Shown here piece after piece: positions 16,174-53,151 of a DNA stretch of 64,000 bases (positions within the stretch are counted from its first letter, which is position 1; each line of letters opens with the position of its first letter). Under the pieces are notes generated by a model. That model was not told the DNA's origin, did no database searches, and saw nothing but the letters and a program-made list of their open reading frames with translations. The translations under genes and the position numbers were made by a program. The DNA lies in NCBI GenBank assembly GCA_965203275.1, contig OZ241865.1, forward strand, positions 736,001 through 800,000, read 5' to 3'. This DNA comes from Bdellovibrionales bacterium (GTDB lineage: Bacteria > Bdellovibrionota > Bdellovibrionia > Bdellovibrionales > JAUICD01).

Positions 16174-16494
16174 TTTTCACTCAAAATGAGCGGATTTTTG
16201 AGGCAATGACCATTTTGTCAACGGCGAAAGCCAAAAAGTGTAAGAAAGAACTTTTTCCTTAACATGGAGTAAAAAACGAGGAGATCCTCCCTACTAAAAG
16301 TAAACGAACTTTTGAGGTTGCCAGCATTTAAGAAGGCGAATAGCCTTCGGCTGGCAACCCAAAAGTGACCAGAGGTCAGTTTACTTTTAGTGCAAAAGAC
16401 GGCTGGTTTATTTTTAGTGAGACAAACGCCCAAAAACACACCAGAGGTGTGGCTCATTTTGAGTGAAATGTTAAGGAATGAGGAGATCCTCCTT
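16174..16494. repeat. Modular palindromic repeat cluster 1
   Basis: Starts TTTTCACTCAAAAT directly after the dnaE stop; complete branched hairpin at 16292-16392. Confidence 0.9.
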
Positions 16495-16866
16495 ATGAAA
16501 AAGGTATTAAATGTAGAGAAGAATTAATGACAGGTCAGAATAAACAAGCAAGGCAACTGAGTGTTTCAGAAGCAATGTTAAAGTTAAAAGAAGTCAGAGC
16601 AGTGCCTGTCACATTAAAAGATAAGACCCTGTGGATGAGAACAGATATCACAGGTCATGCAACAGATGTATTTAAAGCAGTCAAAATACCAGCAAAACCC
16701 ATCAAAGCTTAAAAGTAAAAGTAGAATCATCACAATCTTAATTAATCTTAATAGATTGTCCAAAATTCTGCCACAAAAACAAAAACCTAGTGGCACAAAA
16801 TCCCTTTCGACTCATAATCTACTGCTCAACTTTATTTTTGCAGGCTATCAAACTCAGGAACTCAGG
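16495..16866 (+). mobile_element. Remnant of a transposase C-terminus and element end, possibly IS1634-like
   Basis: ORF 16527..16712 (LKEVRAVPV...WMRTDITGHATDVFKAVKI) resembles DDE transposase tails from memory; the segment ends in a duplicated AACTCAGG (16851-16866). Confidence 0.5.
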
Positions 16867-17005
16867 AACCTTGAGCAGACAGGCAATAACCTCTCAATAT
16901 GGCCTGCACAACAAAGGTGACATCATCTGTTTTAAATCTTGGAGAATTTTGAGCATACACTAAATTCCCCCACAGCAAACTTAAAATAAAAATATAAACT
17001 TTCAT
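16862..17005 (-). pseudogene. Short signal-peptide ORF (47 aa), probably truncated by the IS remnant
   Basis: AGGAGG RBS, MKVYIFILSLLWGNLVYA signal; the stop codon falls inside the CCTGAGTT duplication. Confidence 0.5.
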
Positions 17006-17168
17006 GGTTTCCTCCTGCTAGCATTGTTGGTTGTTATTTATCTATATCAATTTTATTTGTTACAAGATATAAATTGTGGCTTGTCAAGTATGAATATTAT
17101 GACTTTGATGTTTTAAACATGAGGCGTTTTTCATTGCATTCTCTCAACTGAATGTTATTTTTTAATCT

Positions 17169-18044
17169 ATGAATAATATTTTAGTTACAAAAATATCTGG
17201 TACACAGAATACTTTTTTAATCTTGGATGCACGTTCTGAAGATTTCAATGCCTGTTTACATCAAATTTCTGGTGGTTTATCTCGCCCTCAAATAGCTCAA
17301 AAGCTATGTCAGTCGTTTTTACCTTCAAATTCTAAAACAGATGGGTGTATTTTTATAGAAAAAGACACTGTAGTAGATTTTCAATGGGATTTTTATAATG
17401 CCGATGGCTCACAGGCACAGATGTGTGGCAATGCAGCCAGGTGTGTGGCCTGGTTAGCTTATAAGTACAAGTGGGTTTCAACATCTGTTGTGCGGTTTCG
17501 CTCTGCATCAGGAATTATTCAAGCCCATGTTGATTTTCATAAAAATTTTGTGCAGGTGATCATGGCTAGCCCTCAGATTTTAGAGCAGGAAAAAACTTTT
17601 CAATACAAAGATCAGCAGATTAAAGGTTTATATGTCAATACAGGTGTTCCTCATTTTGTGACACAAGTAGGTTATCAAGGCTTTAATAAAAATAAACTCA
17701 AAGGCATAGCTAAGTATTTAAGAGATCATATTGATTTTAAACCTGAAGGAAGTAACATTTCTTTTGTTTACCTTTCTGACAAGAAGGTTCAGGGTTTAAC
17801 TTTTGAGAGAGGAGTTGAAGATTTTACACAATCTTGTGGAACGGGTGCTGTAGCTATGACTGCTTTTTTGATTTCAAGATCGGTATACTCATTTAATGAG
17901 GATATAGTTATTGAGCTACCTGGAGGCAAGCTTATAGTCAAAATCACTGATCATTATCAACAGGCTTTTTTGTCCGGTGATGTGGAGTATTTAAATCAAT
18001 TTTTATTGACTGCTCATATTTTTAATTCGACGCTCTCAAAGTAA
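17169..18044 (+). CDS. dapF: Diaminopimelate epimerase
   Basis: FYNADGS.AQMCGNAARC, NTGVPHFV, TFERGVED.TQSCGTG. Confidence 0.93.
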   Translation: MNNILVTKISGTQNTFLILDARSEDFNACLHQISGGLSRPQIAQKLCQSFLPSNSKTDGCIFIEKDTVVDFQWDFYNADGSQAQMCGNAARCVAWLAYKYKWVSTSVVRFRSASGIIQAHVDFHKNFVQVIMASPQILEQEKTFQYKDQQIKGLYVNTGVPHFVTQVGYQGFNKNKLKGIAKYLRDHIDFKPEGSNISFVYLSDKKVQGLTFERGVEDFTQSCGTGAVAMTAFLISRSVYSFNEDIVIELPGGKLIVKITDHYQQAFLSGDVEYLNQFLLTAHIFNSTLSK

Positions 18045-18101
18045 TAGAGTCTTTTTTATTTTTAACGTAAGTGTTTATCTTTAGCATAATGGAGTGAAAA
18101 A

Positions 18102-18177
18102 TGGTGGCTTAGGACGGAATCGAACCGCCGACACAAGGCTTTTCAGGCCTCTGCTCTACCGACTGAGCTACCAAGCC
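18102..18177 (-). tRNA. tRNA-Phe(GAA)
   Basis: 76-nt cloverleaf GGCTTGGTAGCTCAGTCGGTAGAGC...CTGAAAA...GGTTCGATTCC...CCA. Confidence 0.96.
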
Positions 18178-18311
18178 ACCTGATCTATATTTATCTTAAA
18201 TTCTTAAGATTTAACTATTATGGTATATTATTATATATTATGTATTTCAAGGCAAATGATAATTAAGAATGTAATAGACAGAGCTTAGGATAATTTTTTT
18301 AGCATGCTGTT

Positions 18312-21268
18312 TATCCGGGATCCGGGATCTGGCAACCCGGCAAGCGGGTGTAAGAAGGAGCTTTTTCCTTAACATGGTGTTAAAAGAGGAAAGGATCCTC
18401 CTACTAAAAGTGGTCAAGCTTTCTAGGTTGCCAGCATTTAAGAAGGCGAATAGCCTTCGGCTGGCAACCAGAAAGTGACCAGAGGTCAGACCACTTTTAG
18501 TGAACCAACTAACTCCCTAACCCCACCCACCGCCCTTCGATTCTGCTTTTCCATTTTGTTTGTATGATTATGAGTGGGAGGCGGAGGCAGGCTTCCGAAG
18601 TCCTCAATTGAGCTTGCTCCTTAAAAGCAAGCTCAATTTGCGGAAGATCTTCAGCCTGCCTCCGCCTCCCACTCATAATATTCATGCTTTTTTGAAAATT
18701 ACGCAGAATCTAAAAAAGAATAAAAAAAACAAAAAAAGGAAATTTTTCCTTAACATTTCACTCAAAATAAATCATGCCTCTGTTTCCCTAAAATTGAACT
18801 AGCCTCTGGCTACTTTTGGGCAGTTAGCCCGACGACTGTCGTCGTCGATCAAAGGCTAACTGCCTCAAAAGCCTGTTCAATTTTAGGAAGAAGGATGTCC
18901 CCATTTCTTGACACCATGTTAAGGAAAATATCCTTCTAATACCAGTTAGCCCGACGGCTACTGCCGTCGATCAAAGGCTAACTGCCTAGAAAATTCATTT
19001 ATTTTGAGTAGAGGAGGATCCTTTTATTCCTTTACACCATATTAGGGAAAATTTCTTTTATTACCTCAAGAGCAAGTAGGCTTACAAATGAAACTCTTTT
19101 TCCTTAACATGGTATTTATCTGGGATCTGGCATCCGGGATCTGGGATCTGGGATCCGGGATCCAGCAACCCGGCATCAGGTCCTAAAGCATTGATTGTAA
19201 TGAATTTTTGCATCTAAAAAATTTCCTCCTGAGCCCTTGGCGGGTTTTTAGAAAGGAGGAAATTTTTATGACGATGAAAAAATTCAAAACTTACCAATTA
19301 GCTACTCAATTTTATCGTAATTCTAAAAAATTACATCTGAAAGAGCCTCATAGAAGTCAATTTCGAAGGGCTGTCTCAAGTATTGTACTTAACTTAGCTG
19401 AAGGATCTGCTAAACCTACAGCAAAAGATCGTAGGAAATTTTACTATATTAGTCTTGGCTCTCTAAGAAATCTCAATGAAACTCTTTTTCCTTAACATGG
19501 TGTTAAAAAACGAAGAGATCCTTTCTACTAAAAGTGGTCAGGCTTTCTAGGCGATGACCATTTTATCGATGGCAAAAGCCATCGTGGTCATCGCCAGAAA
19601 GTAGCCAGAGGCCAGTTCACTTTGAGTGAAACAGACCCTTAACATGGTGTTAAAAAATGAGGAGATTCTCCCTACTCAAAATAAATGGATTTTCTAGGCA
19701 GTTAGCCTTTGATCAACGGCGATAAGCCGTTGGGCTAACTGCCAGAAAACATGCCAGAGGCATGATTTATTTTGAGTGAAACAAACCGGCAACCCGGCAT
19801 CAGAAGGAACTGTTTCCTTAACATGGTGTTAAGAGACGAGAGGATCCTCCCTACTAAAAGTAAACGGACTTTTGAGGTAGCCAGCATTTAAGAAGGCGAA
19901 AGCCTTCGGCTGGCAACCCAAAAGTGACCAGAGGTCAGTTTACTTTTAGTGAAAATCAAATGAGACGATGACCATTTTGTCAAAGGCGAAAGCCTTTGCG
20001 GTCATCGTCCAAAAGTGACCAGAGGTCAGTTCACTTTGAGTGAAACAGACCCTTAACATGGTGTTAAGAAAAGAGGAGATCCTCCCTACTCAAAATAAAT
20101 GGATTTTCTAGGCAGTTAGCCTTTGATCGACGGCGGTAGCCGTCGGGCTGGCTACCCAAAAGTAGCCAGAGGCTAGTTTACTTTTAGTGAAACAATGCAC
20201 GTATCTCTGAAAGAGGTTCGTACGGGTAGACGAAGATCACCGAAATTAGATAATAATAGGTCCAACAATAATATATACAACAAAGAGTATATATTTAGGA
20301 TGTTATGCAATGAATTTCTGACCGATCACCTCAAAATTGACCTTCCAGTTCTCTGAAAAGAGTTTGACCTGGTGGATCCATGAAATTAGAAATAGAATAT
20401 TCAAGGAGGGGAAATTTTGAGGGACACAACTCACGTATCTCTGAAAGAGGTTCGTACGGGTAGACGAAAATCATCGAAATTAGATAATAATAGGTCCAAC
20501 AATAATATATACAACAAAGAGTATATATTTAGGATGTTATGCAATGAATTTCTGACCGATCACCTCAAAATTGACCTTCCAGTTCTCTGAAAAGAGTTTG
20601 ACCTGGTGGATCCATGAAATTAGAAATAGAATATTCAAGGAAGGGAAATATTGATAGAAGGAGCTTTTTCCTTAACATGTAGTTAAGAGACGAGAGGATC
20701 CTCTCTACTAAAAGTAAACGGACTTTTGAGGTAGCCAGCCTTTGATCGACGGCGGTAGCCGTCGGGCTGGCTACCCAAAAGTAGCCAGAGGCTAGTTTAC
20801 TTTTAGTGAAACAATGCACGTATCTCTGAAAGAGGTTCGTACGGGTAGACGAAAATCATCAAAATTAGATAATAATAGGTCCAACAATAATATATACAAC
20901 AAAGAGTATATATTTAGGATGTTATGCAATGAATTTCTGACCGATCACCTCAAAATTGACCTTCCAGTTCTCTGAAAAGAGTTTGACCTGGTGGATCCAT
21001 GAAATTAGAAATAGAATATTCAAGGAGGGGAAATATTGATAGAAGGAGCTTTTTCCTTAACATGTAGTTAAGAGACGAGAGGATCCTCTCTACTAAAAGT
21101 AAACGGACTTTTGAGGTAGCCAGCCTTTGATCGACGGCGGTAGCCGTCGGGCTGGCTACCCAAAAGTAGCCAGAGGCTAGTTTACTTTTAGTGAAACAAT
21201 GCACGTATCTCTGAAAGAGGTTCGTACGGGTAGACGAAGATCACCGAAATTAGATAATAATAGGTCCA
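18312..21268. repeat. Modular palindromic repeat cluster 2 (~3 kb), including a truncated four-helix-bundle gene and a 385-bp tandem duplication
   Basis: Multiple A hairpins (e.g. 18402-18502, 19672-19778, 19852-19951), B hairpin ~18507-18745, heptamer runs near 18315 and 19120. Confidence 0.92.
19268..19495 (+). pseudogene. Truncated four helix bundle protein (IVS/Avd-like)
   Basis: Nearly identical to 49660..49965 up to SLGSLR, then replaced by the repeat module AATGAAACTCTTTTTCCTTAAC. Confidence 0.85.
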
Positions 21269-21382
21269 AATAAACTTGCTAAGTAAAATCTCGACCTCTA
21301 TAATAAGTTAATGAATAATGGAATACTAAAAAAGTTTATTTAAGTTTTAATTTAACAAAAGATACAAGAAAGATACATAATA

Positions 21383-22696
21383 ATGAAAGAACTACTTAAA
21401 GACATTAAAGAAGACACATCAAAGGCACTCACTCACTGGAGTGATCTCGACTTGCTTAAAACTCGTGCTGTTTTGTGGTTGGGGGCTATACTTGTAGGAG
21501 CTGTTTCTGCTGGCTTTGCAGTTGTCTGTCATTGGGCATCCAGAACAAATGCCACTTGGTATACAGATAAACCTTATTTGCCTTATATCCTTTTACCTTT
21601 TGGCTTATTGGCTCTACATTGTTTAACAGTTCTTGTGAATCCGACTTGTAAAGGAAGTGGTATTCCTCAGGTTATTGCAGCAGCTAAAGTTTCTAAGTCA
21701 ACACTTTTATCTTGGCATCTTGCCATCACTAAATTCATACTTACTGCTGGAGGGCATCTTGTAGGAGCTTCTATTGGAAGGGAAGGCCCGACTGTTCACA
21801 TTAGCTCTTCTATTTTATGCTCTTTTGCAAAGTATGCTAAGATTGACAAAAAAGACATTGAACAGGGTATTATTGTGGCAGGAGGAGCCGCTGGATTATC
21901 TGCTGCATTTAACACCCCACTTGCAGGGATTGTTTTTGCCATAGAAGAGCTAAGCCGTAAATTTGAAGAAAGAATGAGTTACTTAACCTTAATCACTGTG
22001 GTCATTGCTGCTCTTGTGTCTATGCTTCTTTTTGGTAATCATTCTTACTTTGCTCTGAGTGCTTCAAGTATTGCCATCTCATGGGATCAAGCATCTTACA
22101 TAGCTATTGTCGTAGGCGTGATCTGTGGTTTGTTAGGAGGACTGTTTTCAAAAATTTTGCTTTACTTAAAAACACAGGTACAATCTTTTTCTTCCAATAA
22201 AAATATGATGTTGGCTTTCTTTTGTGGTTTAGTGATCGCTGTTTTAGGTCATATCACTGGTGGCTTTGTTTTTGGTACAGGTTATATTCAAACATTGGAT
22301 ATTTTAAGAGGTGATGCAACACATTCTTCTTTATTTTTTCCTATTGCAAAAATGTTTTCTACATTAGCATCTTACATGAGCGGTATTCCGGGGGGAGTAT
22401 TTGCTCCATCTCTTGCTATAGGAGCTTCTATTGGAGATTATCTTTCTTCAGTTTATTTTGTAGATGTTGTGGGACCTGTAGTAGCCATATTAGGTATGGC
22501 AGCATATCTTTCTGGTGTTGTAGGAGCTCCCATTACATCCTTTGTGATTGTTTCAGAGTTGGTTAGAGATCAATCGATGATTATCCCCTTGATGATTGCC
22601 ACTGTTATTGCAAGTGTGGCTTCTAAAAGTGTTTGTCCACAGCTACTCTATCATACTCTCTCCTATAATTATTACGATAAGCTACAATTAAAATAA
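21383..22696 (+). CDS. ClC family chloride channel / H+:Cl- antiporter
   Basis: GSGIP, GREGP and GGVFAP signature motifs. Confidence 0.92.
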
Positions 22697-22718
22697 GGCT
22701 TTTAAAAGGAGGTTTATT

Positions 22719-23609
22719 TTGAAAAAAACTCAAATTCTTGGAGTTTTTGGAGCTGGTCAGATGGGTCAAGGGATCACTCAAACTGCAGCAAGTTTTGGTT
22801 TTTCTGTTCATTGTTTAGATAGCTCTTTAAAAATGTTAGAAAAGACACAAGCTCAAATAGAAAAAAACCTTACTCATTTAGTAAACAAGCAAAAGATCAC
22901 TCAGGAAGAAAAGGCTCAGACCATCGAAAGAATTCTGTATGTTCATTTCTCTGGCACATTTAATAGGTCATTTTTTAAAAATTATCAAGTGGTTATAGAA
23001 GCCATCACAGAGGATGTTCGAACAAAACTTGAGCTTTTTGCTCAACTTGACAGTTTACTTCCTCCAGAGTCTATTTTATGTTCTAATACTTCTTCAATTT
23101 CTATTACTCGCTTAGCATCGGCCACTAAAAGACCTGATAGGGTAGCTGGTATGCATTTTATGAACCCTGTTCCTGTGATGCGATTGGTGGAGGGCATTCG
23201 AGGATTGCAAACATCTGATGTGACTTTTTTACAAGTGAAAGCACTAGCTGAGAAGATGGGAAAAGTTTTTGTTGAATCTATTAAAGATAGCCCTGGTTTT
23301 ATTGTCAATCGCATTTTAATGCCGATGATCAATGAAGCTTTTTTTGCATTAGACGAAGGTATTGCTTCTGCTAAAGATATTGATGCAGCTATGAAGTTAG
23401 GTTGTCGTCATCCCATGGGGCCTTTGGAGTTAGCAGATTTTATTGGATTAGATGTGTGCTTAGCTATTATGCAGGTATTACATAAAGACTTAGGAGATCC
23501 TAAGTATAGATCAAGCCCTTTGCTTATAAAATATGTAGAAGCTGGTTGGTTAGGTAGAAAGACCCTTAAAGGAGTATTTAACTATGCTGACTCTTTTCAC
23601 TCAAAATAA
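22719..23609 (+). CDS. hbd: 3-hydroxybutyryl-CoA dehydrogenase
   Basis: [44 protein letters not shown]. Confidence 0.92.
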
Positions 23610-24256
23610 ACCTTCATCCCTAACCCCACCCACTCTTTTCACTCAAAATGCATCATGCCTCTGTTTCACTCAAAGTGAACTGACCTCTGGTCACTTTCTG
23701 GCGATGACCACGATGGCTTTCGCCATCGATAAAATGGTCATCGCCTAGAAAGCCTGTTCACTTTGAGTAGAAAGAATCTCTTCGTCTATTAACACCATGT
23801 TAAGGAAAAAGTTCTTTCTTACACCTTGGGCATGTTTTTGGGCAATGACCGCAAAGGCTTTCGCCTTTGACAAAATGGTCATTGCCTCAAAAATCTATGC
23901 ATTTTGAGTAGGGAGGATATCCTTGCTTCTGACACCATGTTAAGGAAACAAGACGTTCATATTTTTTTGTTTTTTTATTCTTTTCTAGATTCTGCGTAAC
24001 CTTCAAAAAAGCATGAGTATTATGAGTGGGAGGCGGGGGCAGGCTGAAGATCTTCCGCAGACCCGCTTGCTCCCCAAAAGCAAGCGAAGGTTGAGGACTT
24101 CGGAAGCCTGACCCCGCATTCCACTCATAAAAACATACAAATGGAAAAGCAGAATCGAAGGGCGGTGGGTGGGGTTAGGGAGTTGATTCACTCAAAATGC
24201 ATCATGCCTCTGTTTCACTCAAAGTGAACTGACCTCTGGTCACTTTTAGTGAAACA
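23594..24256. repeat. Modular palindromic repeat cluster 3
   Basis: A hairpins in minus orientation and a B hairpin (~23960-24190, minus); bounded by TTTTCACTCAAAA and TTTTAGTGAAAC. Confidence 0.9.
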
Positions 24257-24257
24257 A

Positions 24258-25013
24258 TCATCGGTAACTTCTTTCTATAAAGCAAGGAATATCTTGCCAT
24301 GCCACAATTCCTGTAGAAGTTTTTAAAGAACCATCAATTAACACTGCCTGATAGTAAGGACTTTTACTGTTGAATGCACAATATTTGTTTAAAGCATTTT
24401 TAATTTCTTCTCTTTGAGATAAAGCTAATTGACAAACAAAAGATTGCGATAAAGCAAAATCAAGCCCTTGTTTTAAAGAAGACAAAAAATGCATTATATC
24501 TTGCTTATGAACCTTGCAAACCTCAGCAGATAAGTGCGTAGCCTTTAATCCTGCAAAGGGTAATTGAGGTGAAGAAAAAATATTTATACCAATACCTATA
24601 AATATTTTTGTTTCTTTTCCCTGTTGAATGATCTCAATTAAAATACCTGCTAGTTTTCCATCTTTTAAATAAATATCATTGGGACTTTTTAAACTTAAAA
24701 CCTTTTGTAATGGCCATGTTTTTAAAAGAGCTTTGTAAAGTACTAAACCCACAAGAGGTGCTAAAATAGGTTGCACAGCTTGAGATACCACAAATATCCA
24801 TGTCGTTGCAATGCTATCCCCATAACCAGAACATATCCATTTATTTTGACCTCTTCCTCGCCCTTTTGTTTGTTCATCTGTAATAATCAAATGCGATCGA
24901 CTTTTTTTAGCATAGTCACTGGTACTCTCTATTTTTTCAATATACTCTGCTTTAAGGTCAGAAATATCTGCCCACTCTTTAATTATTTGGCCTACAGGTT
25001 GTTTTTGATCCAT
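24258..25013 (-). CDS. birA: Biotin--protein ligase
   Basis: STSD, QTKGRGRGQNKW, LKSPNDIYL, KLAGILIE, GIGIN. Confidence 0.88.
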   Translation of the reverse strand: MDQKQPVGQIIKEWADISDLKAEYIEKIESTSDYAKKSRSHLIITDEQTKGRGRGQNKWICSGYGDSIATTWIFVVSQAVQPILAPLVGLVLYKALLKTWPLQKVLSLKSPNDIYLKDGKLAGILIEIIQQGKETKIFIGIGINIFSSPQLPFAGLKATHLSAEVCKVHKQDIMHFLSSLKQGLDFALSQSFVCQLALSQREEIKNALNKYCAFNSKSPYYQAVLIDGSLKTSTGIVAWQDIPCFIERSYR

Positions 25014-25073
25014 GGGCTGTTTTTTCCTACAAAAATTCTATTTTTGTCATTTGTAAACATCTTGCTGAAATAT

Positions 25074-26597
25074 TTAATTACTTGAATTCTTATTTGAATC
25101 GTACTCTGAAAGCAAGCGAGAAATTTCTTCTTTGATTTGTTTTTTAGCCATTTGAGGTAGTTCTTTATTGAGTATTCTCTGGATTTGATTTTGAGCAATC
25201 TTTCTAACCTCTTCTTGAACTAACTGAGCAATTTCTTCTTTGGAATACATTGCAGAAGGATATGATTTTTGTTCTTTAGAATCTCCTGTGATCTCAGGGG
25301 GTAGCGGAAAGCTAATAGGAGTCATTTCTTCTTCCTCCTGAGGTTCTATAAAGTTTATTGTTGTTTCATCTTTGATCGCATCCTCTGTTGAAATATCTAC
25401 TTTGAAAGCGTCAGGAATAACCTTTGATGGTTTTTTAGTACTAGACTTATTAATATTAAGTGTATCTTGAGAAGATGATGATTTTTGTATATCTAAAACC
25501 TTTGCAGGTGGCTTAGATGGTATATCTTTTTTAATGTTTGAAGTATCGGTTGTTTTTAATTTGAGAGTATGAGAGGTATCAGGTGAGGTTTTTGTATCTT
25601 GTTTTTTCTTATAAATATTAGGGCTGACAGCTTTGATATTTTTTGGAGAGGTTGTAGTAGATTTTGTTGAATATGAAGATATAGGCTCTGGAGCTTTTTC
25701 TATTTGAGGTACATCTTTTTTCTTTGATTCTTGTGAATTGATCAAACGCACATCTTCTAAACCAATATCAGAAAAGTCAAGTGTATCTTTTGATGGAGAT
25801 GCTTGTGATGGAGGGGGGTCGGCTTTTTGAGATGACTTTAAAGTATCCGAAGAAAAAAGCTCTACTTTTTTAAAATCTTCTTCCCCGTCTAATTCAGATA
25901 AAGATTTTTGTAATTCTTTGAGTTCTACATCGCTATTAATAAGTCCTTCAGGTTGTTGATTTTTAGTCTCTGTAGATAAATCAGTAGATTTTTCTATCGG
26001 TCCTTTATTTGGATGTTGTTTTTGAGGTAGAACAATTACATTTTGTGAAGTAGCATCTTGTATAGGCATAGAATTTTGTGAGGGTGAACCTTGTTGAGGT
26101 AAATCTTTTATATCAGAGAGTATATCTTGATCTAAATCTTCAATAGCAGGAAGTTGCATTTCTTCTCCCAACTCAGCTAAAGGTGAATCTTCTAAATCAA
26201 GACATTTTGTGACAAGAGATCGTAGCCTTTTTTGTGTAAATGGTTTTTCTAAAATATCATCTGCTTCTGAGTTTTGAAATTTTTCTTGATCAATGCCTAT
26301 GATGCTACTGTACATAAGTATAATAGGAACAGATTTAAAACGTTCATCTGCTTTAAGAGTTTTTGCTACCTCATAACCATTGACTTTCGATAAAAGGGTA
26401 TCTAAAAAAATCAAAGAAGGTTTAAATGAACTAACTATTTCTAAAATATTTTCTTCTAAGGAAAGTGATTTATCACGTACCTGTGATGCATCATCAGGAA
26501 TAAAAGATTGCATTTTCACTGCAAAATCTTTTAAAGAAAGATGAATAGCTTTTGAAATACTCTCACTGTGATCTGCAACTAAAATTCGCAATGCCAT
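25074..26597 (-). CDS. romR: RomR-like response regulator (receiver domain, long low-complexity linker, C-terminal helical domain)
   Basis: N-terminal RILVAD...KPF receiver; C-terminal VRKIAQ...ELPQMAKKQIKEEISRLL resembles the RomR C-terminal region. Confidence 0.65.
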   Translation of the reverse strand: MALRILVADHSESISKAIHLSLKDFAVKMQSFIPDDASQVRDKSLSLEENILEIVSSFKPSLIFLDTLLSKVNGYEVAKTLKADERFKSVPIILMYSSIIGIDQEKFQNSEADDILEKPFTQKRLRSLVTKCLDLEDSPLAELGEEMQLPAIEDLDQDILSDIKDLPQQGSPSQNSMPIQDATSQNVIVLPQKQHPNKGPIEKSTDLSTETKNQQPEGLINSDVELKELQKSLSELDGEEDFKKVELFSSDTLKSSQKADPPPSQASPSKDTLDFSDIGLEDVRLINSQESKKKDVPQIEKAPEPISSYSTKSTTTSPKNIKAVSPNIYKKKQDTKTSPDTSHTLKLKTTDTSNIKKDIPSKPPAKVLDIQKSSSSQDTLNINKSSTKKPSKVIPDAFKVDISTEDAIKDETTINFIEPQEEEEMTPISFPLPPEITGDSKEQKSYPSAMYSKEEIAQLVQEEVRKIAQNQIQRILNKELPQMAKKQIKEEISRLLSEYDSNKNSSN

Positions 26598-26680
26598 ACA
26601 TATATATTAAGCTTTTTAATTTGAGAGTCAAAACAAAAACAATAATAATATTTTACCTTTGTATTCTATATCCTAGGTAT

Positions 26681-27358
26681 TTAAAATTCTTTAAAAGCTA
26701 TAAGTAAGCCTTCTTCTGTAGGTAAAATGGTAGATGTGTACTTTTGAGGATCAGAAAGTCTTTTGTTGAACTGATGCATAGAAGTCCATGCCTCTGAGCT
26801 TATTTCTGTTGATTTGGACTCTTTATAAATATGACCAAATAAATAAGCATTATCTCCTATAATCAAGCCCCCTTTTTTTAAATATTTTTCTGCCCAATCT
26901 AAATATTGAGTATACCCATCCTTATTAGCATCAATAAAAATAGCATCTATAGGGGCATACTTTTCTAACTTTTTCAAAGATTCAAGAGCCGGTCCCTCTA
27001 TGACGTCATAATGACAGGCAGGTTGCATTTCTGATAAAGAGAGCCTTGCAAGATCAGCGTGTTCTTTTTGAATATCTAATGTCCAAAAGAAACCTTGAGA
27101 AGGTAAGGCTTTGACAATCCATGAAGCAGAATATCCAGTAAAAGCTCCTACTTCTATGACTTTTTCTGCTTGAATGGATCTTATGAGGCATTGAAGTATT
27201 TTACCCTCTTGTGGGGTGATCATCATTTCTGGATGAATTTCTTCTGCTCTCCTTTTGGCGTTCAGTTGAGCTTGGTTTTCTTGGCAAAAAAGATTGTGAA
27301 CATACTCAGATCTTGCATGGAAATCTTTAGAATGTATTTGTTCTCGTCTAGCACTCAT
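26681..27358 (-). CDS. O-methyltransferase (caffeoyl-CoA OMT / YrrM-like)
   Basis: VIEVGAFTGYS, IFIDANK, GGLIIGDN. Start moved to 27358 because the longer ORF overlaps the tRNA. Confidence 0.88.
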   Translation of the reverse strand: MSARREQIHSKDFHARSEYVHNLFCQENQAQLNAKRRAEEIHPEMMITPQEGKILQCLIRSIQAEKVIEVGAFTGYSASWIVKALPSQGFFWTLDIQKEHADLARLSLSEMQPACHYDVIEGPALESLKKLEKYAPIDAIFIDANKDGYTQYLDWAEKYLKKGGLIIGDNAYLFGHIYKESKSTEISSEAWTSMHQFNKRLSDPQKYTSTILPTEEGLLIAFKEF

Positions 27359-27373
27359 TTCGGGTCCTTCAAT

Positions 27374-27449
27374 TGGAGCTGACAATAGGAGTCGAACCTA
27401 CAACCTGCTGATTACAAATCAGCTGCTCTGCCAATTGAGCTATGCCAGC
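27374..27449 (-). tRNA. tRNA-Thr(TGT)
   Basis: 76-nt cloverleaf GCTGGCATAGCTCAATTGGCAGAGC...TTTGTAA...GGTTCGACTCC...CCA. Confidence 0.96.
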
Positions 27450-27763
27450 TTTAAACACTATTAAACGTAATTTATAATATCTCATAGTTCATAATACCTG
27501 TCAATGATCAAAGAAAGCTTTGACTTATGATATGGATATGTTATCAGTAAATCAGTGGAATCAACAGGAGGTAACACACAAATATTTTTGATAGATATCA
27601 CAAGAGGATACTAAAAGATTGTAATTATTAGAGTTTCTTGTAATTATGGATAGGGATTATTTGAGTGTTTTCCAAAAATATTATAAAAAGTTTTGCTTTA
27701 GAATATAAATGTATGTTATTCTTTAAAGTAAGGATAAAAGTTTAATTTTAGAGGAGGAATATA

Positions 27764-27982
27764 ATGGCTAGAGATGATCTGGCTCAATTAGAAGGACAAG
27801 TCGTAGATGCCTGTGTAGGAGGTATTTACAAGATCAAGCTAGACAATGATGTTCAAGTGCAGGCTAAGCTTTGTGGTAAAATGCAAAAGTTTAATATTCG
27901 TATTGTAGTAGGAGATAAAGTTACAGTAGGTGTTTCGCCTTATGATCCTACACATGGCTTGATCATGTACCGCCACAAATAA
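27764..27982 (+). CDS. infA: Translation initiation factor IF-1
   Basis: 72 aa, GKMQKFNIRIVVGDKVTV.VSPYD; GAGGAG RBS. Confidence 0.95.
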   Translation: MARDDLAQLEGQVVDACVGGIYKIKLDNDVQVQAKLCGKMQKFNIRIVVGDKVTVGVSPYDPTHGLIMYRHK

Positions 27983-28245
27983 TTCTTAGACCTTTTATGT
28001 CATGTCATTTTTCTTACTAACTTCTCATATCTTCTTTGGAAATGACTAGACCTGTGTCTGTATTCTATTACTATTTTCCTAATTTCTTAGAGATTACCAA
28101 TTCTCATCTTTATGAAAGGTCATATTCTCCCGATATAAAAACAGAGGCTTTACTAAAAACATTTACAAAGAAAAGGAAAGAATCTTGCTTCTGGGATATG
28201 GCAATCAGGCGAGGGTGAGGCAAAAGGATTATCCCTAACCTTATT

Positions 28246-28692
28246 TTTTCACTCAAAATGCATCATGCCTCTGGCATGTTTTCTGGCAGTTAGCCCGACG
28301 GCTACCGCCGTCGTAAAAGGCTGGCTACCTCAAAAGCCTGTTCATTTTGAGTGAAACAACTAACTCCCTACTAAAAGTGGTCAGACAGCAAGCTTCTCTG
28401 AAGCTTGCCATGTAACAACACTAGGTGATGACCATTTGATCGACGGCGAAAGCCGTCGTGGTCATTGCCAGAAAGTGGCCAGAGGCCAGACCACTTTTAG
28501 TGAAACAGAATCTAAAAAAGAATAAAAAAACAAAAAAAGGAAATCTTGTTTCCTTAACATTGTGTTAAGAGACGAGAGGATCCTTTCTACTAAAAGTGGT
28601 CAGGCTTTCTAGGTTGCCAGCATTTGAGAAGGCGAATAGCCTTCGGCTGGCAACCAGAAAGTGACCAGAGGTCAGACCACTTTTAGTGCAAA
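28246..28692. repeat. Modular palindromic repeat cluster 4
   Basis: A hairpins in both orientations; bounded by TTTCACTCAAAA and TTTTAGTGCAAA. Confidence 0.9.
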
Positions 28693-28695
28693 AGG

Positions 28696-31335: not shown

Positions 31336-31444
31336 GTAGTCATTTCAAAAGTAATTTTTTCTGCCTTCTTCTGCGGATCATGTTTATTAAATAACCTGGC
31401 ACTTGTTTTAAGGTATGTGTCATAATGATTTTTTGTATATTGTT

Positions 31445-32875
31445 TTACTCTACATCAGGAATCAACAAGACCTGTCCAGCTCGCAATCGATTGGGATTAG
31501 AAATTTTATTTGCTTTTATCAGATGACGAAAAGGGATTTTAAATTTTTTAGCAATTTCTGAAAAAGTATCCCCTCTAGCCACTTTATATATAGTTGGCTC
31601 TGGAGGTACTTGTTGAGGGATATTTTGGACAAATTTCTGAGTTGTTCCTTGTTGGAGATATAATTTAGTCCCTTGAGGAATATTTTGATAACCCTTTCGG
31701 ATGCTCCTAGCTAAATGAGGGTTATATAAAAGAGCAAGCTGTCGATTGCCTTCAAAAAAGGAAAGTAAATAATTAAATGAAACAGGTTGTTGAATGCGAA
31801 TGGAGTCATATTTAAGTTTGTGAGCCCAAAGAGGTACTTTATTGTTTTCTTCTTTAAAATACTTATTAGCATTTTGTTCTACATACACAGCAGCTAAAAA
31901 ACTTAAATAAAAGTTGGCAGAAGCAAAACCAAATCGACGAGATCGTTTTTTGCTATCTATAATTTCAAAAAGATCAGAAGTGCCACGTCTTTTGAGTAAG
32001 CGTCGGACCCCATAAAGTCCGAAGTTATAAGCTGTGACAGCTAGAGACCAATCTTGTAATTTGTTAAAGTTATGTTTGAGTATTTTAGCAGCAGCTTGAG
32101 TGGCTGCAATAGGGTCGTTTCTTTCATCAATAAAAGGATTCACAATCATATATTGACGGCCTGTCCTAGGCATTAGTTGCCAAATACCACTGGCACCCAC
32201 TTTGGAGCGAGCTGCAAGATTAAAAGAGCTTTCTACAAATGGAAGTCTAGTTAGCTGTAATGGGAGGTCTGCCTTTTTAAAAATATCTTCCATTTCTTCT
32301 AAATAGCGTCCTGAATAAAAAATACCACGTAAAAAACGATCTTTTTGACCTAGTTGGAATCTCATGCGTTGGTCAGTAGCTGCTTTTTTGTATTTTTGCT
32401 TTTCTTCAATACGTTCAAATAATGTCCAGAGTCTCTTTTTTTTAGGAGACCATTCATCTTTTTGTTGTGATTCTTTGGATAAAGAAAGAATAAGTTTTTT
32501 GATATGTTCTTTTCTGTTTTTGACAAATTCTCGTTTTTTTGTGGCACGTTCTTGTGCCGTCAATTCAGGATTTTGTTCTATGTTAGAAAAATCAATTTTT
32601 TCGTACACAAGGTGTGGATAAAGAGAATCATGAATCACCCCTTGATGTGTTGTATGTTGAGAGTAAATATCAACCCAAAATTGCCAATTTTCTTTAAGCT
32701 TTTCCGGTACGGCAAATAATTCTGTTGTCTGATATGTGGGAGGTTGCCAAGCTCGAGATTCTTCTTCTTCTAAACTATGTGTGTATTCCTGATGGTTGAC
32801 AACAGCCCCCCAGGCCACAGAAGTACTAAAGATCATATAAATACTTAGTTTGAAACACATTTTAAACATCATCAT
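31445..32875 (-). CDS. Lytic transglycosylase with C-terminal LysM domain (MltD-like)
   Basis: LPFVESSF, SKVGASGIWQLM, AYNFG; LysM YKVARGDTFSEIA. Confidence 0.9.
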   Translation of the reverse strand: MMMFKMCFKLSIYMIFSTSVAWGAVVNHQEYTHSLEEEESRAWQPPTYQTTELFAVPEKLKENWQFWVDIYSQHTTHQGVIHDSLYPHLVYEKIDFSNIEQNPELTAQERATKKREFVKNRKEHIKKLILSLSKESQQKDEWSPKKKRLWTLFERIEEKQKYKKAATDQRMRFQLGQKDRFLRGIFYSGRYLEEMEDIFKKADLPLQLTRLPFVESSFNLAARSKVGASGIWQLMPRTGRQYMIVNPFIDERNDPIAATQAAAKILKHNFNKLQDWSLAVTAYNFGLYGVRRLLKRRGTSDLFEIIDSKKRSRRFGFASANFYLSFLAAVYVEQNANKYFKEENNKVPLWAHKLKYDSIRIQQPVSFNYLLSFFEGNRQLALLYNPHLARSIRKGYQNIPQGTKLYLQQGTTQKFVQNIPQQVPPEPTIYKVARGDTFSEIAKKFKIPFRHLIKANKISNPNRLRAGQVLLIPDVE

Positions 32876-34647: not shown

Positions 34648-34676
34648 TTAACTCCTGTCATATCCCATAAAGTTGT

Positions 34677-35498: not shown

Positions 35499-35555
35499 AT
35501 CATTTCTCTTGTTAATTTATATTTATTATATTTATTATATTTACTGTTATATTTG

Positions 35556-38246: not shown

Positions 38247-38379
38247 AATGAGTTTTCCTTTGTGAATTTGTCCTTTGTGAATTTATTTTTTAAAAACTAG
38301 GGTTTCGAATATAAGTAGTTTGTAAAAGCATATATCATTCTATATTTTATCCGTCAATTGTCTTTTTTACTCACTGTCT

Positions 38380-39281
38380 TTTTCACTAAAAGTGGTCAAG
38401 CTTTCTAGGTTGCCAGCATTTAAGAAGGCGGTAGCCTTCGGCTGGCAACCAGAAAGTGACCAGAGGTCAGACCACTTTTAGTGAAACAACCCGGGATCCG
38501 GGATCTGGCAACCGGCATCAGGTCCTAAAACTGAACTTTTTCCTTAACATTTCACTCAAAATGAGCCACACCTCTGGTGTGTTTTTTGGTGTTGCCTGCA
38601 AAGGCTTTCGCCTTTGACAAAATAGGCAACACCTAAAAAATCCACTCATTTTGAGTAGGGGAGGATCCTTTTATTCTTTTACATCATGTTAAGGAAAATT
38701 TCTTTTATTACCTCAAGAGCAAGCAGTTTGCGATAAAGGAACTTTTTCCTTAACATGATGTTTATCCGGGATCTGGGATCCGGCAACCCGGCATCAGGTC
38801 CTAAAACTGAACTTTTTCCCTAACATCGTGTTAAAAAAACGAAGGGATCCTCTTTACTAAAAGTAAACGGACTTTTGAGGTTGCCAGCCTTTGATCGACG
38901 GCGGTAGCCGTCGGGCTGGCTACCCAAAAGTGACCAGAGGTCAGTTTACTTTTAGTGAGACAAACCCTTAACATGGTGTTAAAAGAGGAAAGGATCCTTC
39001 CTACTAAAAGTAAACGGACTTTTGAGGTTGCCAGCCTTTGATCGACGGCGGTAGCCGTCGGGCTGGCTACCCAAAAGTGACCAGAGGTCAGTTTACTTTT
39101 AGTGAGACAAACCCTTAACATCGTGTAAAGAGACGAGAGGATCCTCCCTACTAAAAGTAAACGGACTTTTGAGGTAGCCAGCCTTTGATCGACGACGAAA
39201 GTCGTCGGGCTGGCTATCCAAAAGCAACCAGAGGTTGGTTTACTTTTAGTGAACCAGAGGCATGATGCATTTTGAGTGAAA
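38380..39281. repeat. Modular palindromic repeat cluster 5, with three head-to-tail ~147-bp units at ~38820-39251
   Basis: Bounded by TTTTCACTAAAAGT and ATTTTGAGTGAAA; heptamer runs near 38490 and 38765. Confidence 0.92.
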
Positions 39282-39316
39282 AAAAATACTTGCTATAAAG
39301 AAGTAAATCCTATAAT

Positions 39317-49177: not shown

Positions 49178-50109
49178 TTTTCACTCAAAATGAGCCACAC
49201 CTCTGGTGTGTTTTTGGGCATTGCTCTGACAGCTATCGCTGTCCAAAAAGAGCAATGCCACAAAAAACTGCTCATTTTGAGTAGGGAGGATCTCCTCGTT
49301 TTTTAACTTCATGTTAAGGAAAAAGTCCTTTTGTTTCACTAAAAGTAAACTAGCCTCTGGCTACTTTTGGATAGCCAGACCGACGGCTACCGCCGTCGAT
49401 CAAAGGCTGGCTATCTCAAAAGTCCGTTTACTTTTAGTAGGGAGTTAGTTGGTTCACTCAAAGTGAACTGGCCTCTGGCCACTTTCTGGTTGCCAGCCGA
49501 AGGCTATCGCCTTCTCAAATGCTGGCAACCTAGAAAGCCTGTTCACTTTGAGTAAGGAGGATCCCTTCATTTTTTTACTTCATGTTAAGGAAAAAGTTCA
49601 TTTCTGTGATCTGATGCCGGGTTGCCGGATCCCAGATCCCAGAAAAATCAAATTTAGCTTTAAGTATTTTTACATAACTTGTATAAAAAAGCCCCTAATG
49701 TATCCGCTTGTTTTGCTAATTCTATACAGCCAATAAGTTCTAAGTTTAATATTGCCTGAACCTCTCTTAGAGAACCAAGACTAATATAGTAAAATTTCCT
49801 ACGATCTTTTGCTGTAGGTTTAGCAGATCCTTCAGCTAAGTTAAGCACAATACTTGAAACAGCTCTTCGAAATTGACTTCTATGGGGCTCTTTCAGATGT
49901 AATTTTTTAGAATTACGATAAAATTCAGTAGCTAATTGATAAGTTTTGAATTTTTGCATCGTCATAAAAATTTCCTCCTTTCTAAAAACCCGCCAGGGCT
50001 TGGGAGGAAATTTTTTAGATGCAAAAATTCATTACAATCAATACTCTAGAACCTGATGCCGGGTTGCCGGATCCCAGATCCCGGATCCCAGATAACCATG
50101 ATGTTAAGG
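49178..50109. repeat. Modular palindromic repeat cluster 8 containing the intact four-helix-bundle gene
   Basis: Three A hairpins (minus orientation); heptamer runs at 49611-49642 and 50053-50092 flank the gene as direct repeats. Confidence 0.92.
49660..49965 (-). CDS. Four helix bundle protein (23S rRNA IVS protein / Avd-like family)
   Basis: FKTYQLA...SQFRRAVSSIVLNLAEGS...FYYISLGSLREVQ; AGGAGG RBS. Confidence 0.88.
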   Translation of the reverse strand: MTMQKFKTYQLATEFYRNSKKLHLKEPHRSQFRRAVSSIVLNLAEGSAKPTAKDRRKFYYISLGSLREVQAILNLELIGCIELAKQADTLGAFLYKLCKNT

Positions 50110-50672
50110 TTTCCTTACTTTCTTTATCCTTTTTTTAGCAAATGCAAACTTTAAATAACATATTATAGACTTAAAAATTACCAAATCAATACCTATTTTC
50201 TTTTTTAAAATATATTCCCTAATATATCCCCCATTGTTTCATTAGCAGGATAAATCTTTTTGTGTTATGACACTTTGTTCTTAACTTTAACTAATCGCTC
50301 TAAGTATTAAGCACTCTCTTGCATTTTTAACAAAGTTAATGATTATAAAATAATCTATCAAATTAAAATATTGCATTCAAGTTAGAGTTGACATTATATA
50401 GCTTAGTGACATAGCAAAATAAAGATAGAGAATGAAATAGTCGCCCTTTTTAAGGTTGACAGAGAATCTTATAACCTAAAATATCTATCAAGCCATTTCA
50501 TTATGACAAATTCAAAGCAAAAGAGTAAAAGTGATATTCATAGCAAGGAATAAAGATAGACATTTTATAGTTTGTAGTAATGAATTTCTAGTCAATCACT
50601 TTAAAATTGACCATTTATTTCTCTAAAATATTTTTGACTTGTGGATGTATAAAATTAGAAAAAGGATATTCA

Positions 50673-52052
50673 ATGAAAGTGCCACCACATAATACAGAAG
50701 CAGAAATGTCAGTGCTTGGAGGATTGATGCTAGAATCCCAAGCTATGGACGATATAGAAGGTCTTTTAACTCATACAGACTTTTATAAACCCGCCCATCA
50801 AAAAATTTTTGAAGCTATAGAAAACCTATATCAAAAAAGACAACCTTTTGATATTGTCATGGTCTCTAACTATCTTTCCGAACAGGGAGAACTTGAAGCT
50901 ATTGGAGGAGCCAGTACCCTCACTCAACTTTATGATACGACATTTTCCATAGCTAATATTCATTCTTATGCACAGGTTGTCAAAGACAAAGCCCAATTGA
51001 GGAAAGCCATATCAACCTTGACAGATCTGACCTCACAGGCTTATGAACCAAGCCAACATGAATCCGTCAATGATTTTATTCGTTACATGGAATCTTCTGT
51101 TTATGCCTTAGCTGATGAAAAATCTATCTCCGGATTGCTCTCTGCAACTGATGTGATCAAAAGCAGTATGGATCGATTAGAAAGCCTAGCTTCTCAAGAA
51201 ACAGAAGTGACAGGGATACCTACAGGTTTTGTTGATCTCGATAAAATGACAGCAGGCTTTCAACCACAAGAACTTTTGATTTTAGCTGCCCGTCCTTCTA
51301 TGGGTAAAACAGCCTTCAGTTTAAATATTGCTGTCAATTCTGCTTTAAGGGCAGATAAAAAAGTGGCTTATTTTTCTCTAGAAATGTCAAAGGAACAACT
51401 GATGCTACGTATTTTAGCATCTGAATCTCAAATGGATCTTGCAAAGCTACGTGTAGGTAAAATCCCTGACGCTGGCTGGTCACAACTCATTTCTACAGCA
51501 GCTATGATCTCAGAATCTGAACTTTATATTGATGACACATCAGCGATTAGTCCTTTTGAAATTTTAGCAAAATGCCGAAGGTTGAAAAATCAAAAAGGCT
51601 TAGACTTAATTATTATAGATTATCTTCAACTGATGGATTTAAAACAAAAAGTAGAAAGTCGAGAAAGAGCTGTATCTGAAATTTCTAAAACTTTAAAAAA
51701 AATTGCTAAAGAACTCAAAGTTTCTGTAATGGCTTTAGCACAACTCAACCGCTCTGTAGAAACCCGCTCTGATAGAAGACCAGTGCTTTCAGATCTAAGA
51801 GAATCTGGTTCTCTTGAACAAGATGCTGATTTGATTATGATGATCTACCGAGAAGACTATTATGATGCTCAAGCAGACAACAAAGGTGAAGCAGAGATCA
51901 TTATAGCTAAGCAGAGAAATGGCCCTGTAGGGACAGTTAAACTCGCTTGGAAACCACAATTTGGTACTTTCATGAACTTAGCTCCTACAAGCCTAGAAAA
52001 GATGAACCCTCATCCTTACCTCCCATCTTCACCAGACTTCCATTTGACATAG
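50673..52052 (+). CDS. dnaB: Replicative DNA helicase
   Basis: PPHNTEAE, AARPSMGKT, IIIDYLQL, SDLRESGSLEQDAD, KQRNGP. Confidence 0.97.
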   Translation: MKVPPHNTEAEMSVLGGLMLESQAMDDIEGLLTHTDFYKPAHQKIFEAIENLYQKRQPFDIVMVSNYLSEQGELEAIGGASTLTQLYDTTFSIANIHSYAQVVKDKAQLRKAISTLTDLTSQAYEPSQHESVNDFIRYMESSVYALADEKSISGLLSATDVIKSSMDRLESLASQETEVTGIPTGFVDLDKMTAGFQPQELLILAARPSMGKTAFSLNIAVNSALRADKKVAYFSLEMSKEQLMLRILASESQMDLAKLRVGKIPDAGWSQLISTAAMISESELYIDDTSAISPFEILAKCRRLKNQKGLDLIIIDYLQLMDLKQKVESRERAVSEISKTLKKIAKELKVSVMALAQLNRSVETRSDRRPVLSDLRESGSLEQDADLIMMIYREDYYDAQADNKGEAEIIIAKQRNGPVGTVKLAWKPQFGTFMNLAPTSLEKMNPHPYLPSSPDFHLT

Positions 52053-52159
52053 ACTCTGTAAATTTTACTATAATCAATAAAAAAAGTTTATAATCAAGCA
52101 TAAGCTGATATTATGAAACTCCTATAAAACAACTTGCTTATTTATAATTTTGTGGTATA

Positions 52160-53151
52160 TTTCACTCAAAATGCATCATGCCGTCTTTTGCACTTGAAAT
52201 GAACCACACCTCTGGTGTGTTTTTGGGCATTGCTCTGACAGCTCACGCTGTCTAAAAAGAGCAATGCCTCAAAAATCTGTTCATTTCAAGTAGGGGGAGG
52301 ATATCCTTCCTACTCAAAGTGAACAGGCTTTCTAGGCGATGACCATTTTATCGATGGCGAAAGCCATCGTGGTCATCGCCAGAAAGTGACCAGAGGTCAG
52401 TTCACTTTGAGTGAAAATCAAATGAGGTAGCCAGCCTTTGATCGACGGCGAGAGCCGTCGTGGTCATCGCCAGAAAGTGACCAGAGGTCAGACCACTTTT
52501 AGTGAGCCAATGTCCAAAAGTGACCAGAGGTCAGTTTACTTTGAGTGAAACAGAGAGGTGTGGTTCACTTTGAGTGAAACAACTCCCTAACCCCACCCAC
52601 CACCCTTGATTCTGCTTTCCATTTGTATGTTTTTTATGAGTGGAATGCGAAGGCAGGCTTCCGAAGTCCTCAACCTTCGCTTGCTTTTAAGGAGCAAGCG
52701 GGTCTGCGGAAGATCTTCAGCCTGCCTTCGCATCCCACTCATAATATTTATATGTTTTGGAAAATTACGCAGAATCTAAAAAGAATAAAAAAACAAAAAA
52801 ATGAAACTCTTTTTCCTTAACATGGAGTTTTTCCGGGATCCGGGATCCGGCAACCCGGCAGTCCGGCATCAGTGAAGCAAACGTCTTGTTTCCTTAACAT
52901 GGTGTTAAGAAAAGAGGAGATCCTCCTTACTAAAAATAAACGGATTTTTGAGGCAATCAGCCTTTGATCGACGGCGAGAGCCGTCGGGCTGATTGCCCAA
53001 AAACAGCCAGAGGCTGGTTTATTTTTAGTGAGATAAACGCCCAAAAACATGCCAGAGGCATGATGCATTTTGAGTGAAAATGACGGCTAGACCACTTTTA
53101 GTGAGCCAATGTCCAAAAGTGACCAGAGGTCAGTTTACTTTTAGTGAAACA
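52160..53151. repeat. Modular palindromic repeat cluster 9
   Basis: A hairpins in both orientations, B hairpin ~52580-52805, heptamers ~52833; bounded by TTTCACTCAAAAT and TTTTAGTGAAAC. Confidence 0.92.

Follow-up and report, generated by a model that had tools for sequence, protein, structure and literature searches.

A polar hairpin repeat whose defined end lies beside genes in a compact Bdellovibrionales genome

In the 64,000-nt stretch of DNA analysed here (the window; G000:C1:736001-800000), which belongs to a closed Bdellovibrionales genome (G000; 2,567,810 bp, 35.1% G+C), clusters of repeated DNA meet several genes with the same short sequence, AGTGAAA. These clusters can be understood as pile-ups of a polar, non-coding hairpin repeat of about 150 nt, in which a sequence-defined terminus, ...TTTKAGTGAAA, would be the end that touches unique DNA. 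The polarity of this repeat family is real, and it is new as a description of the family: one end meets genes and the other almost never does, which places a hard constraint on how the repeat spreads. We consider it on balance likely that this end came to abut genes through insertion into spacers that were already tiny, combined with selection, and probably not through a stepwise stripping of spacer DNA, as an earlier reading of the window from its letters (the sequence-only reading) had proposed. The result counters a tempting deletion story, in that this compact genome would have been tight before the repeats arrived.

The repeat unit and the polarity of its clusters

In the window the sequence TTTCACTMAAA is present 37 times, where 0.53 would be expected, a count reached in none of 100 shuffles and in agreement with the recurrence reported by the sequence-only reading, and 943 times in the whole genome. 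It is the right terminus (right end, RE) of a repeat unit that measures 142-148 nt between CCTTAACA and AGTGAAA in 368 units and 171-172 nt in 44. The unit is made of a leader, AAGGAnCTTTTTCCTTAACATGGTGTTAAGAAACGAAGAGATCCTCC, of a long bulged hairpin with interchangeable central stems, and of a right arm, CCAAAAGTnnCCAGAGGnnnGTTyACTTTkAGTGAAAca, whose terminus reads ...TAGTGAAA or ...GAGTGAAA. Folded as single-stranded DNA, one unit reaches -46.1 kcal/mol (z -9.25). The RE is the sole sharply defined terminus of the element, with conservation stopping 2-4 nt past AGTGAAA, and the flank just outside it shows a weak bias (C/A-A-A/G-A, 0.16-0.40 bit). A profile built from the 368 units, which was also used with nhmmer to orient elements, yields 1470 hits in G000, 1344 of them non-overlapping (6.3% of the genome), and 445 non-overlapping hits in G001, a sister genome of the same genus that was fetched whole for comparison. 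The RE pattern was found in these two genomes only among 31 relatives, and in G000 only within a 401-genome sample of the phylum that includes G000 and not G001. Rfam holds no family for the unit, and a permissive scan of window positions 18200-24400 returned only chance-level hits. Repeated DNA was masked as 16-mers present three or more times, which covers 21% of G000; a 12-mer mask was dropped as far too permissive, since it masked 60% of the genome.

Boundaries were studied between 1531 anchors kept in G000 (where 38 tRNA genes were called), which delimit 1513 intergenic regions, 299 of them with elements (including 75 convergent and 145 tandem regions) and 838 repeat-free. Boundary classes were assigned by mismatch-tolerant and nhmmer-based matching, an earlier regular-expression classifier having missed variant ends. 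The sequence-only reading had singled out the AGTGAAA terminus as the special end of the element, and in this it is supported: besides being the only sharp terminus, the RE faces outward in 393 of the 598 outermost positions (binomial p 1e-14), and it lies near stop codons in a way that leader ends (LEs) do not. The 299 occupied regions comprise 100 bounded by REs on both sides (RE/RE), 193 mixed and only six LE/LE (100 vs 6, binomial p 4e-23), and the same holds in G001, with 17 RE/RE regions and one LE/LE. Given the 66% outward bias, RE/RE regions are not in excess over independence (100 observed, 129 expected), and the striking fact of this polarity is the near absence of LE/LE. Full leader ends contact unique DNA beside a gene in 16 cases and REs in 150, the leader side running on nearly always into other repeated or extra DNA. 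Two REs lie within 40 nt of each other once in G000, and two leaders within 60 nt 17 times; a head-to-head junction expression centred on the leader palindrome returned nothing relevant and missed the window's own example. Elements are not preferentially oriented along or against replication (Fisher p 0.31).

Only 200 of the 943 exact REs face unique DNA, and among 1370 loosely matched REs the next sequence is CAGAGG, the element's own side loop, in 158 cases and an inverted half-leader in 103. Stacked right-end fragments of 26-29 nt (CAGAGG...AGTGAAA) are seen in the window at 23633-23689, 52526-52581 and 62949-63004. To judge from their sequence, such stacks could be made by slipped-strand duplication, without new insertion, because the AAGTGAC that precedes the internal CAGAGG resembles the terminus (GAGTGAAAC). 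The absence of a target-site duplication, also claimed by the sequence-only reading, was borne out in 22 RE/RE clusters, where direct-repeat lengths equal those of shuffled flank pairs. Solo elements number five in G000, too few for a test of hairpin targets.

Right ends, stop codons and native spacers

The distance between RE and stop codon, anchored on the motif, has a median of 6 nt in 107 junctions, with 33 negative values, 37 at 0-9 nt, 14 at 12-19 nt, eight at 21-28 nt and 15 further away. The 33 negative cases are junctions in which the host open reading frame (ORF) ends inside the repeat, and their values are quantised at -9 (15 cases), -15 (eight) and -20 (six). An ORF entering from the RE side reads TTT CAC TAA, TTT CAC TCA AAA TAA or, in another frame, TAG, and the repeat therefore supplies the stop codon of the host ORF. 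In this manner the repeat has rewritten the ends of dozens of genes. The ORFs that end in the repeat are slightly short with respect to their orthologues (median tail difference 2 aa, p 0.039); from a reading of the listed pairs, a few native codons appear to have been swapped at such ends for two to six repeat-encoded ones, and gene ends show no more than this small-scale replacement. Start codons lie much further away, with a median RE-start distance of 85 nt, or 60 nt without an intervening repeat. Among the outermost elements next to a stop in G000, about 49 of 176 REs (~28%) and about two of 75 full leader ends (~3%) lie within 10 nt of a stop (Fisher p 7e-7), as do about 23 of 88 REs and about five of 115 leader ends in G001 (p 9e-6), all of these counts being back-calculated from rounded fractions. 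The six close contacts that the sequence-only reading had listed in the window were confirmed, at 1 nt for dnaE, inside the ORF for hbd, and at 3 nt for birA, 4 nt for the ATG at 28696, 11 nt for the DUF366 gene and 3 nt for tRNA-Ser; further outward ends in the window lie far from genes, at 134, 65, 107 and 91 nt.

Several lines of evidence indicate that the spacers beside which REs are found are natively short. Repeat-free spacers in G000 have medians of 47 nt between two stops, 29-39 nt in tandem and 220 nt in divergent arrangements, and G001 is similar. Between the two genomes there are 1171 reciprocal best hits (median 64.6% amino-acid identity) and 336 syntenic regions, none of which holds elements in both genomes; ten hold them in G000 alone and ten in G001 alone. 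At the 20 syntenic empty counterparts the gene-to-gene distance is -56, -8, -4, -4, 6, 13, 14, 27, 28 and 39 nt in the lower half and 40, 44, 75, 80, 134, 161, 161, 240, 255 and 377 nt in the upper half, with a median of about 40 nt and four negative values that correspond to overlapping genes; clusters of 0.3-2 kb therefore sit between genes that overlap or stand few bases apart in G001. This comparison with empty orthologous loci does not support the deletion model of the sequence-only reading, and neither does the unique DNA that occupied regions retain. Outer unique flanks measure 31 nt in occupied and 47 nt in free convergent regions (p 0.58), about 100 nt in occupied tandem regions, above the free value, and 126 nt in occupied vs 220 nt in free divergent regions (p 0.002), and the total of unmasked DNA per occupied region, 202-310 nt, is above that of free spacers. 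Furthermore, the G001 orthologues of 68 RE-abutted genes have ordinary 3' spacers, with a median of 46.5 nt vs 43 nt (p 0.93); an orthologue spacer test limited to spacers of 60 nt or more was biased by the picking of genes and was replaced by an unbiased set. In 38 RE-stop boundaries with a clean G001 orthologue 3' spacer, the median distance is 9 nt vs a native 54 nt, which falls at a median quantile of 0.48 under uniform landing in [-30, spacer]. An RE is found at the stop of 68 genes in G000 and of 26 in G001, with two in common vs 1.5 expected (p 0.66); since these positions are not common to orthologues, the insertions occurred independently in the two lineages and are not conserved. One of the two shared genes is dnaE, which has a right end beside its stop in both genomes, at 1 nt (window 16171-16185) and at 7 nt (G001:C1:2067034-2067047). 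A stepwise-deletion model is hence not needed, and it is mostly contradicted, as native spacers are already tiny and occupied regions do not hold less unique DNA.

A number of observations weigh against a reading based on short spacers and selection. On the side of deletion, several syntenic comparisons show by eye deficits of 15-45 nt, which are within the normal scatter of free spacers (quartiles -26 to +18 nt). In addition, window positions 20198-21269 hold a tandem repeat of two periods, 234 and 385 bp, in which the 234-bp segment occurs with and without a 157-nt unit, and the occupied junction, as judged by eye, is without 11 nt (GGGACACAACT) that are present in the empty copy, with no duplication. 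On the side of placement, the sequence-only reading had suggested comparing end-to-gene distances with a random model, and a spacing model that conditions on the unique DNA and gap count of each region, with the caveat that internal unique DNA may be passenger, rejects random placement of RE-stop junctions (50% with p<0.1, KS 6.5e-17), while RE-start gaps exceed random (median p 0.76). Where the G001 spacer is at least 40 nt long (n=24, median 132), the stop has the RE within 10 nt in 62% of cases vs 28% under uniform landing, the corresponding figures for non-RE boundaries being 36% and 25% expected. Paired comparisons of the two sides of a region are weak, with the RE side nearer the gene in just 26 of 39 convergent regions (p 0.049) and no significance in single-element regions, and the evidence is further limited by the 1912 gene calls of G000, which come from our own ORF and codon-score caller and have uncertain start codons. 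Taken together, short spacers account for much of the abutment of REs, and an RE-specific excess at stops of about two-fold remains, which could reflect a landing preference, a small replacement of target DNA or a retention like that of repetitive extragenic palindromic (REP) sequences.

In the reading that we favour, copies would have been inserted into native spacers only tens of bases long, and selection would purge those that cut promoters or more than a few codons, which is why REs would be found 0-10 nt from stops, or lending the stop itself, and 60-85 nt from starts. The right end would be joined to the target first, and precisely, and the leader side would carry extra DNA in which later copies land, so that clusters would grow mid-way and right ends would stay at the rims, by genes. 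The sequence-only reading took AGTGAAA instead as a reactive end, with one-ended insertion or adjacent deletion eroding the spacer until an essential gene stops the erosion. Such a process would accommodate the ORFs that run into the repeat in 33 of 107 junctions and their slight shortening, the shorter flanks of divergent occupied regions, the 11-nt loss in the one occupied/empty pair of the window and the fact that REs are nearer stops than uniform landing predicts. We regard it as unlikely in view of native spacers that already measure 29-47 nt, of empty syntenic sites that are just as small or negative, of outer unique DNA that is equal (convergent) or greater (tandem) in occupied regions, of the unmasked DNA that these regions hold in excess of free spacers, and of the distance that REs keep from start codons. 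An explanation through function, in which a hairpin behind the stop would shape the mRNA 3' end (stability, termination or translational control) and be retained as REPs are, fits the two-fold excess within 10 nt of stops and has published precedents in the REPs that lie near stops in E. coli (PMC12306157) and in REP termini that supply stop codons (PMC3733652). We likewise think it improbable, given that orthologues do not have RE-at-stop positions in common and that this end is seen beside start codons and next to a tRNA 5' end as well.

Two further explanations concern the way in which the element moves. Inverted right-end pairs might play the part that terminal inverted repeats have in a cut-and-paste transposon, with whole clusters moving as one, and both the disparity between RE/RE and LE/LE regions and the internal modules common to clusters (heptamer arrays, a GC-rich palindrome and an Avd-like ORF) agree with such composite units. 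RE/RE regions are, on the other hand, not above expectation under independence, 22 RE/RE clusters bear no target-site duplication, no IS110 or Y1 transposase was found in G000 (a search for Y2 being uninformative, with silent controls), and the Tc3-type helix-turn-helix (HTH_Tnp_Tc3) repeats in the window come without an attached catalytic domain; this is the explanation to which we give least credence. It is also doubtful, and only slightly less so, that AGTGAAA is the leading end of a mobile hairpin that integrates end first, without target duplication and without a known transposase or reverse transcriptase, and that is actively drawn to positions just behind stops, for instance through an attraction to the DNA exposed where transcription or translation ends. 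If true, this would amount to a new class of polar bacterial repeat, with an insertion machinery that reads gene ends.

Clusters of the window and their neighbouring genes

AGTGAAA ends make up 10-12 of the 20 cluster boundaries in the window, and the clusters are wider and more mixed than the sequence-only reading had drawn them. Its claim that the same end faces outward on both sides of five clusters, assessed with the 16-mer mask and nhmmer orientation, stands for 23595-24254 and 52160-53149 and roughly for 28247-28691, and fails for the other two. The cluster beside dnaE (16175..16468, plus strand) is composed of a leaderless left-arm fragment opening with TTTCACTCAAA, a full unit at 16243-16395 and a short right-end fragment ending at 16468, beyond which repeated DNA runs on to 16865. 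The TTTCACT at 16175, one nucleotide after the dnaE stop (16171-16173), is the left hairpin arm in plus orientation (profile positions 55-110, without the CCTCTGG bulge) and not an inverted right end. A large mixed cluster (18307..21270) combines heptamer arrays with units of either orientation, a small Avd-like ORF and the 234/385-bp tandem repeat with and without a unit, and has no AGTGAAA end at either outer boundary: in front of the end at 18756 stand half a leader (..CCTTAACAT) and repeats that run from 18307, and the end at 21196 has the 234-bp repeat behind it, up to 21270. The small ORF (19208-19495, plus strand) matches PF05635, the 23S rRNA intervening-sequence protein of the Avd-like four-helix family (E 3.7e-12), and appears to travel with the repeats. 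A second multi-copy small ORF of the clusters, of 61 aa, is located at 16527-16712. Arrays of the heptamers ATCCGGG and ATCTGGG occur in the window at 18310-18340, 19118-19162, 42104-42137, 44958-45007, 50067-50093, 52830-52870 and 62025-62124; they sit at the leader side of clusters, several of whose boundaries they make up.

The cluster between hbd and birA (23595..24254) fills the whole gap, with the right end outward on both sides. The final 15 nt of hbd (ORF 22719-23609), TTT CAC TCA AAA TAA at 23595-23609, are four codons and a stop from the element, and the protein is not truncated, residue 289 of 296 closing a complete Pfam C-terminal domain and its G001 counterpart measuring 287 aa; on the other side, 3 nt separate the motif end at 24254 from the birA stop (24258-24260). 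Near-identical DNA of window positions 21301-31300 is present in sequencing runs from five studies and several host organisms (X1-X13), with divergent copies in sponge metagenomes, and the bacterium probably lives in association with a host. The hbd/RE and RE/birA junctions are kept in Logan contigs of X2, X6 and X7, identical to the window, and of X10 and X11, divergent by a few per cent, and no empty allele or bridging joint was found in these contigs, which end within repeats. The next cluster (28247..28691) opens on an inverted right end that has 26 nt of another repeat before it and finishes as ...TTTTAGTGCAA, 4 nt before the ATG at 28696. An AAGGA arises from the right end ...AGTGCAAAAGGATGTGTATGG (window 28680-28705) shortly upstream of two possible ATG starts, at 28696 and 28702, to which the repeat end may contribute a ribosome-binding site.

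Units upstream of an ORF with helix-turn-helix repeats occupy 38381..39253, their left boundary, TTTCACTAAAA, lying 134 nt from the start of the neighbouring gene. This ORF (39317-41779, plus strand, 820 aa) stands between repeat clusters and is made of about eight tandem repeats of 72 aa (216 nt), which taken together match HTH_Tnp_Tc3_2, a transposase DNA-binding domain (E 1.5e-22); the ORF has no catalytic domain. Four units or fragments follow on the minus strand (41813..42364), and their right end at 41814 faces the stop of the ORF at a distance of 34 nt. The tRNA-Ser gene (minus strand; within window 45172-45592) has on its 3' side a truncated plus-strand unit (45028..45106) with its right end 65 nt from the tRNA, and on its 5' side minus-strand units co-oriented with it (45268..45560). 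Because the right end of the latter sits 3 nt upstream of the tRNA 5' end (45264), its promoter would need to be placed within the repeat cluster or on its far side. A tRNA and several genes have no room left for a native promoter. Minus-strand units upstream of the DUF366 gene (49179..49603) have their right end 11 nt from its likely start, taken from the sequence to be the ATG at 49167-49165. In the longest ORF the first residue of the Pfam domain is number 37, at this same internal ATG, and annotation is misled here, as the longest DUF366 ORF begins inside a repeat. The cluster near dnaB (52160..53149), whose right end faces outward on both sides at distances of 107 nt (dnaB stop) and 91 nt (next start), combines a head-to-head pair joined at the GGATCC-type palindrome of the leader with stacked right-end fragments. 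Plus-strand units at 62126..62975, outside the span of the sequence-only reading, have a heptamer array before them and a stacked right end at their close.

Mobilising enzymes and known repeat families

Searches of G000 for an enzyme that could move the element, made with a set of Pfam profiles, gave none that fits. Six candidates were scored against the Y1 transposase profile PF01797 with no match, there were no candidates for the reverse transcriptase profile PF00078, and an IS110-type transposase was not found. In G001, PF01797 matches once, to an IS200-like gene (1839424-1839918) that is flanked by unrelated hairpins of its own and lies more than 1.8 kb from any element, and three reverse transcriptases were recovered: a retron St85 fusion, a group II intron enzyme (L097:8475-9872) and a fragment. 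The retron protein (G001:C1:2650522-2652294; L133:10522-12294, minus strand) has 590 aa and an St85-family effector-like N-terminus fused to the St85-family reverse transcriptase; an element 437 nt downstream of it was judged a coincidence. The Y2 profile PF04986 has no match in G000 or G001, nor in control genomes, so that this search is uninformative, and hits to the TnpB zinc ribbon fall within a conserved ORF of ~1350 aa in both genomes that is not a TnpB. No autonomous insertion sequence (IS) with the same termini was found among PF01797, PF00078, PF07282, PF04986, PF02371 and PF01498, in a search that left out the DDE families.

The repeats with which the element has most in common are REPs and the larger structures that contain them, the bacterial interspersed mosaic elements (BIMEs) and REPINs. 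The palindrome of REPs terminates in a conserved tetranucleotide, GTAG or CGTC (Di Nocera superfamilies), and genomes with REPs, BIMEs or REPINs hold a cognate REP-associated tyrosine transposase (RAYT; TnpA-REP, a Y1 HUH transposase), typically flanked by repeats. REPs and BIMEs are described as clustered in alternating orientations (PMC2817692), and REPs as often overlapping the 3' ends of ORFs and donating stop codons, preferentially in gaps between tandem or convergent genes (PMC3733652). A distance of 1-20 nt from ORF 3' ends is reported for many E. coli REPs, and ribosomes are stated to stall at the ones no more than 15 nt from the stop (PMC12306157, after its reference 17). Like these families, the element described here is high-copy, intergenic, hairpin-forming, clustered in both orientations and located behind or over stop codons. 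Unlike a REP, a palindrome of 20-40 nt, it is ~145-160 nt long and comprises a leader and a three-way fold, its polarity is strong, a single end being defined, and the PF01797 search found no Y1/RAYT gene in G000.

Other bacterial repeats resemble the element in part. Among transposable elements of the miniature inverted-repeat type (MITEs), QMITE1 and QMITE2 of Coxiella are reported to extend 1-50 bp into the 3' ends of functional genes, where they can add C-terminal residues (PMC5896051), and the enterobacterial RU/ERIC sequences to be non-coding repeats that overlap gene 3' ends (PMC2759123). The element shares with them its non-coding nature and its overlap with gene 3' ends; those sequences have terminal inverted repeats and flanking direct repeats, whereas no target duplication is found for the element, and its two ends behave differently. 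Rolling-circle elements (IS91, ISCR and Helitron) have one precise end with a nearby hairpin, make no target duplication and carry neighbouring DNA at a variable other end. In its one precise end close to a hairpin, its lack of a target duplication and its variable leader side with extra DNA the element is like them, and it differs in that no Rep/Y2 gene was detected (by the search with the silent control) and in its confinement to one genus. Target-primed reverse transcription of short and long interspersed elements (SINE/LINE) leaves, as is seen in the element, a fixed 3' end, 5' truncations and extra 5' sequence, but G000 has no reverse transcriptase, and the element has neither an A-tail nor a target duplication. 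The pattern seen in the window is of a kind already known from other bacterial hairpin repeats, and it is a polar variant of this kind, in an unusual repeat family for which these searches gave no enzyme.

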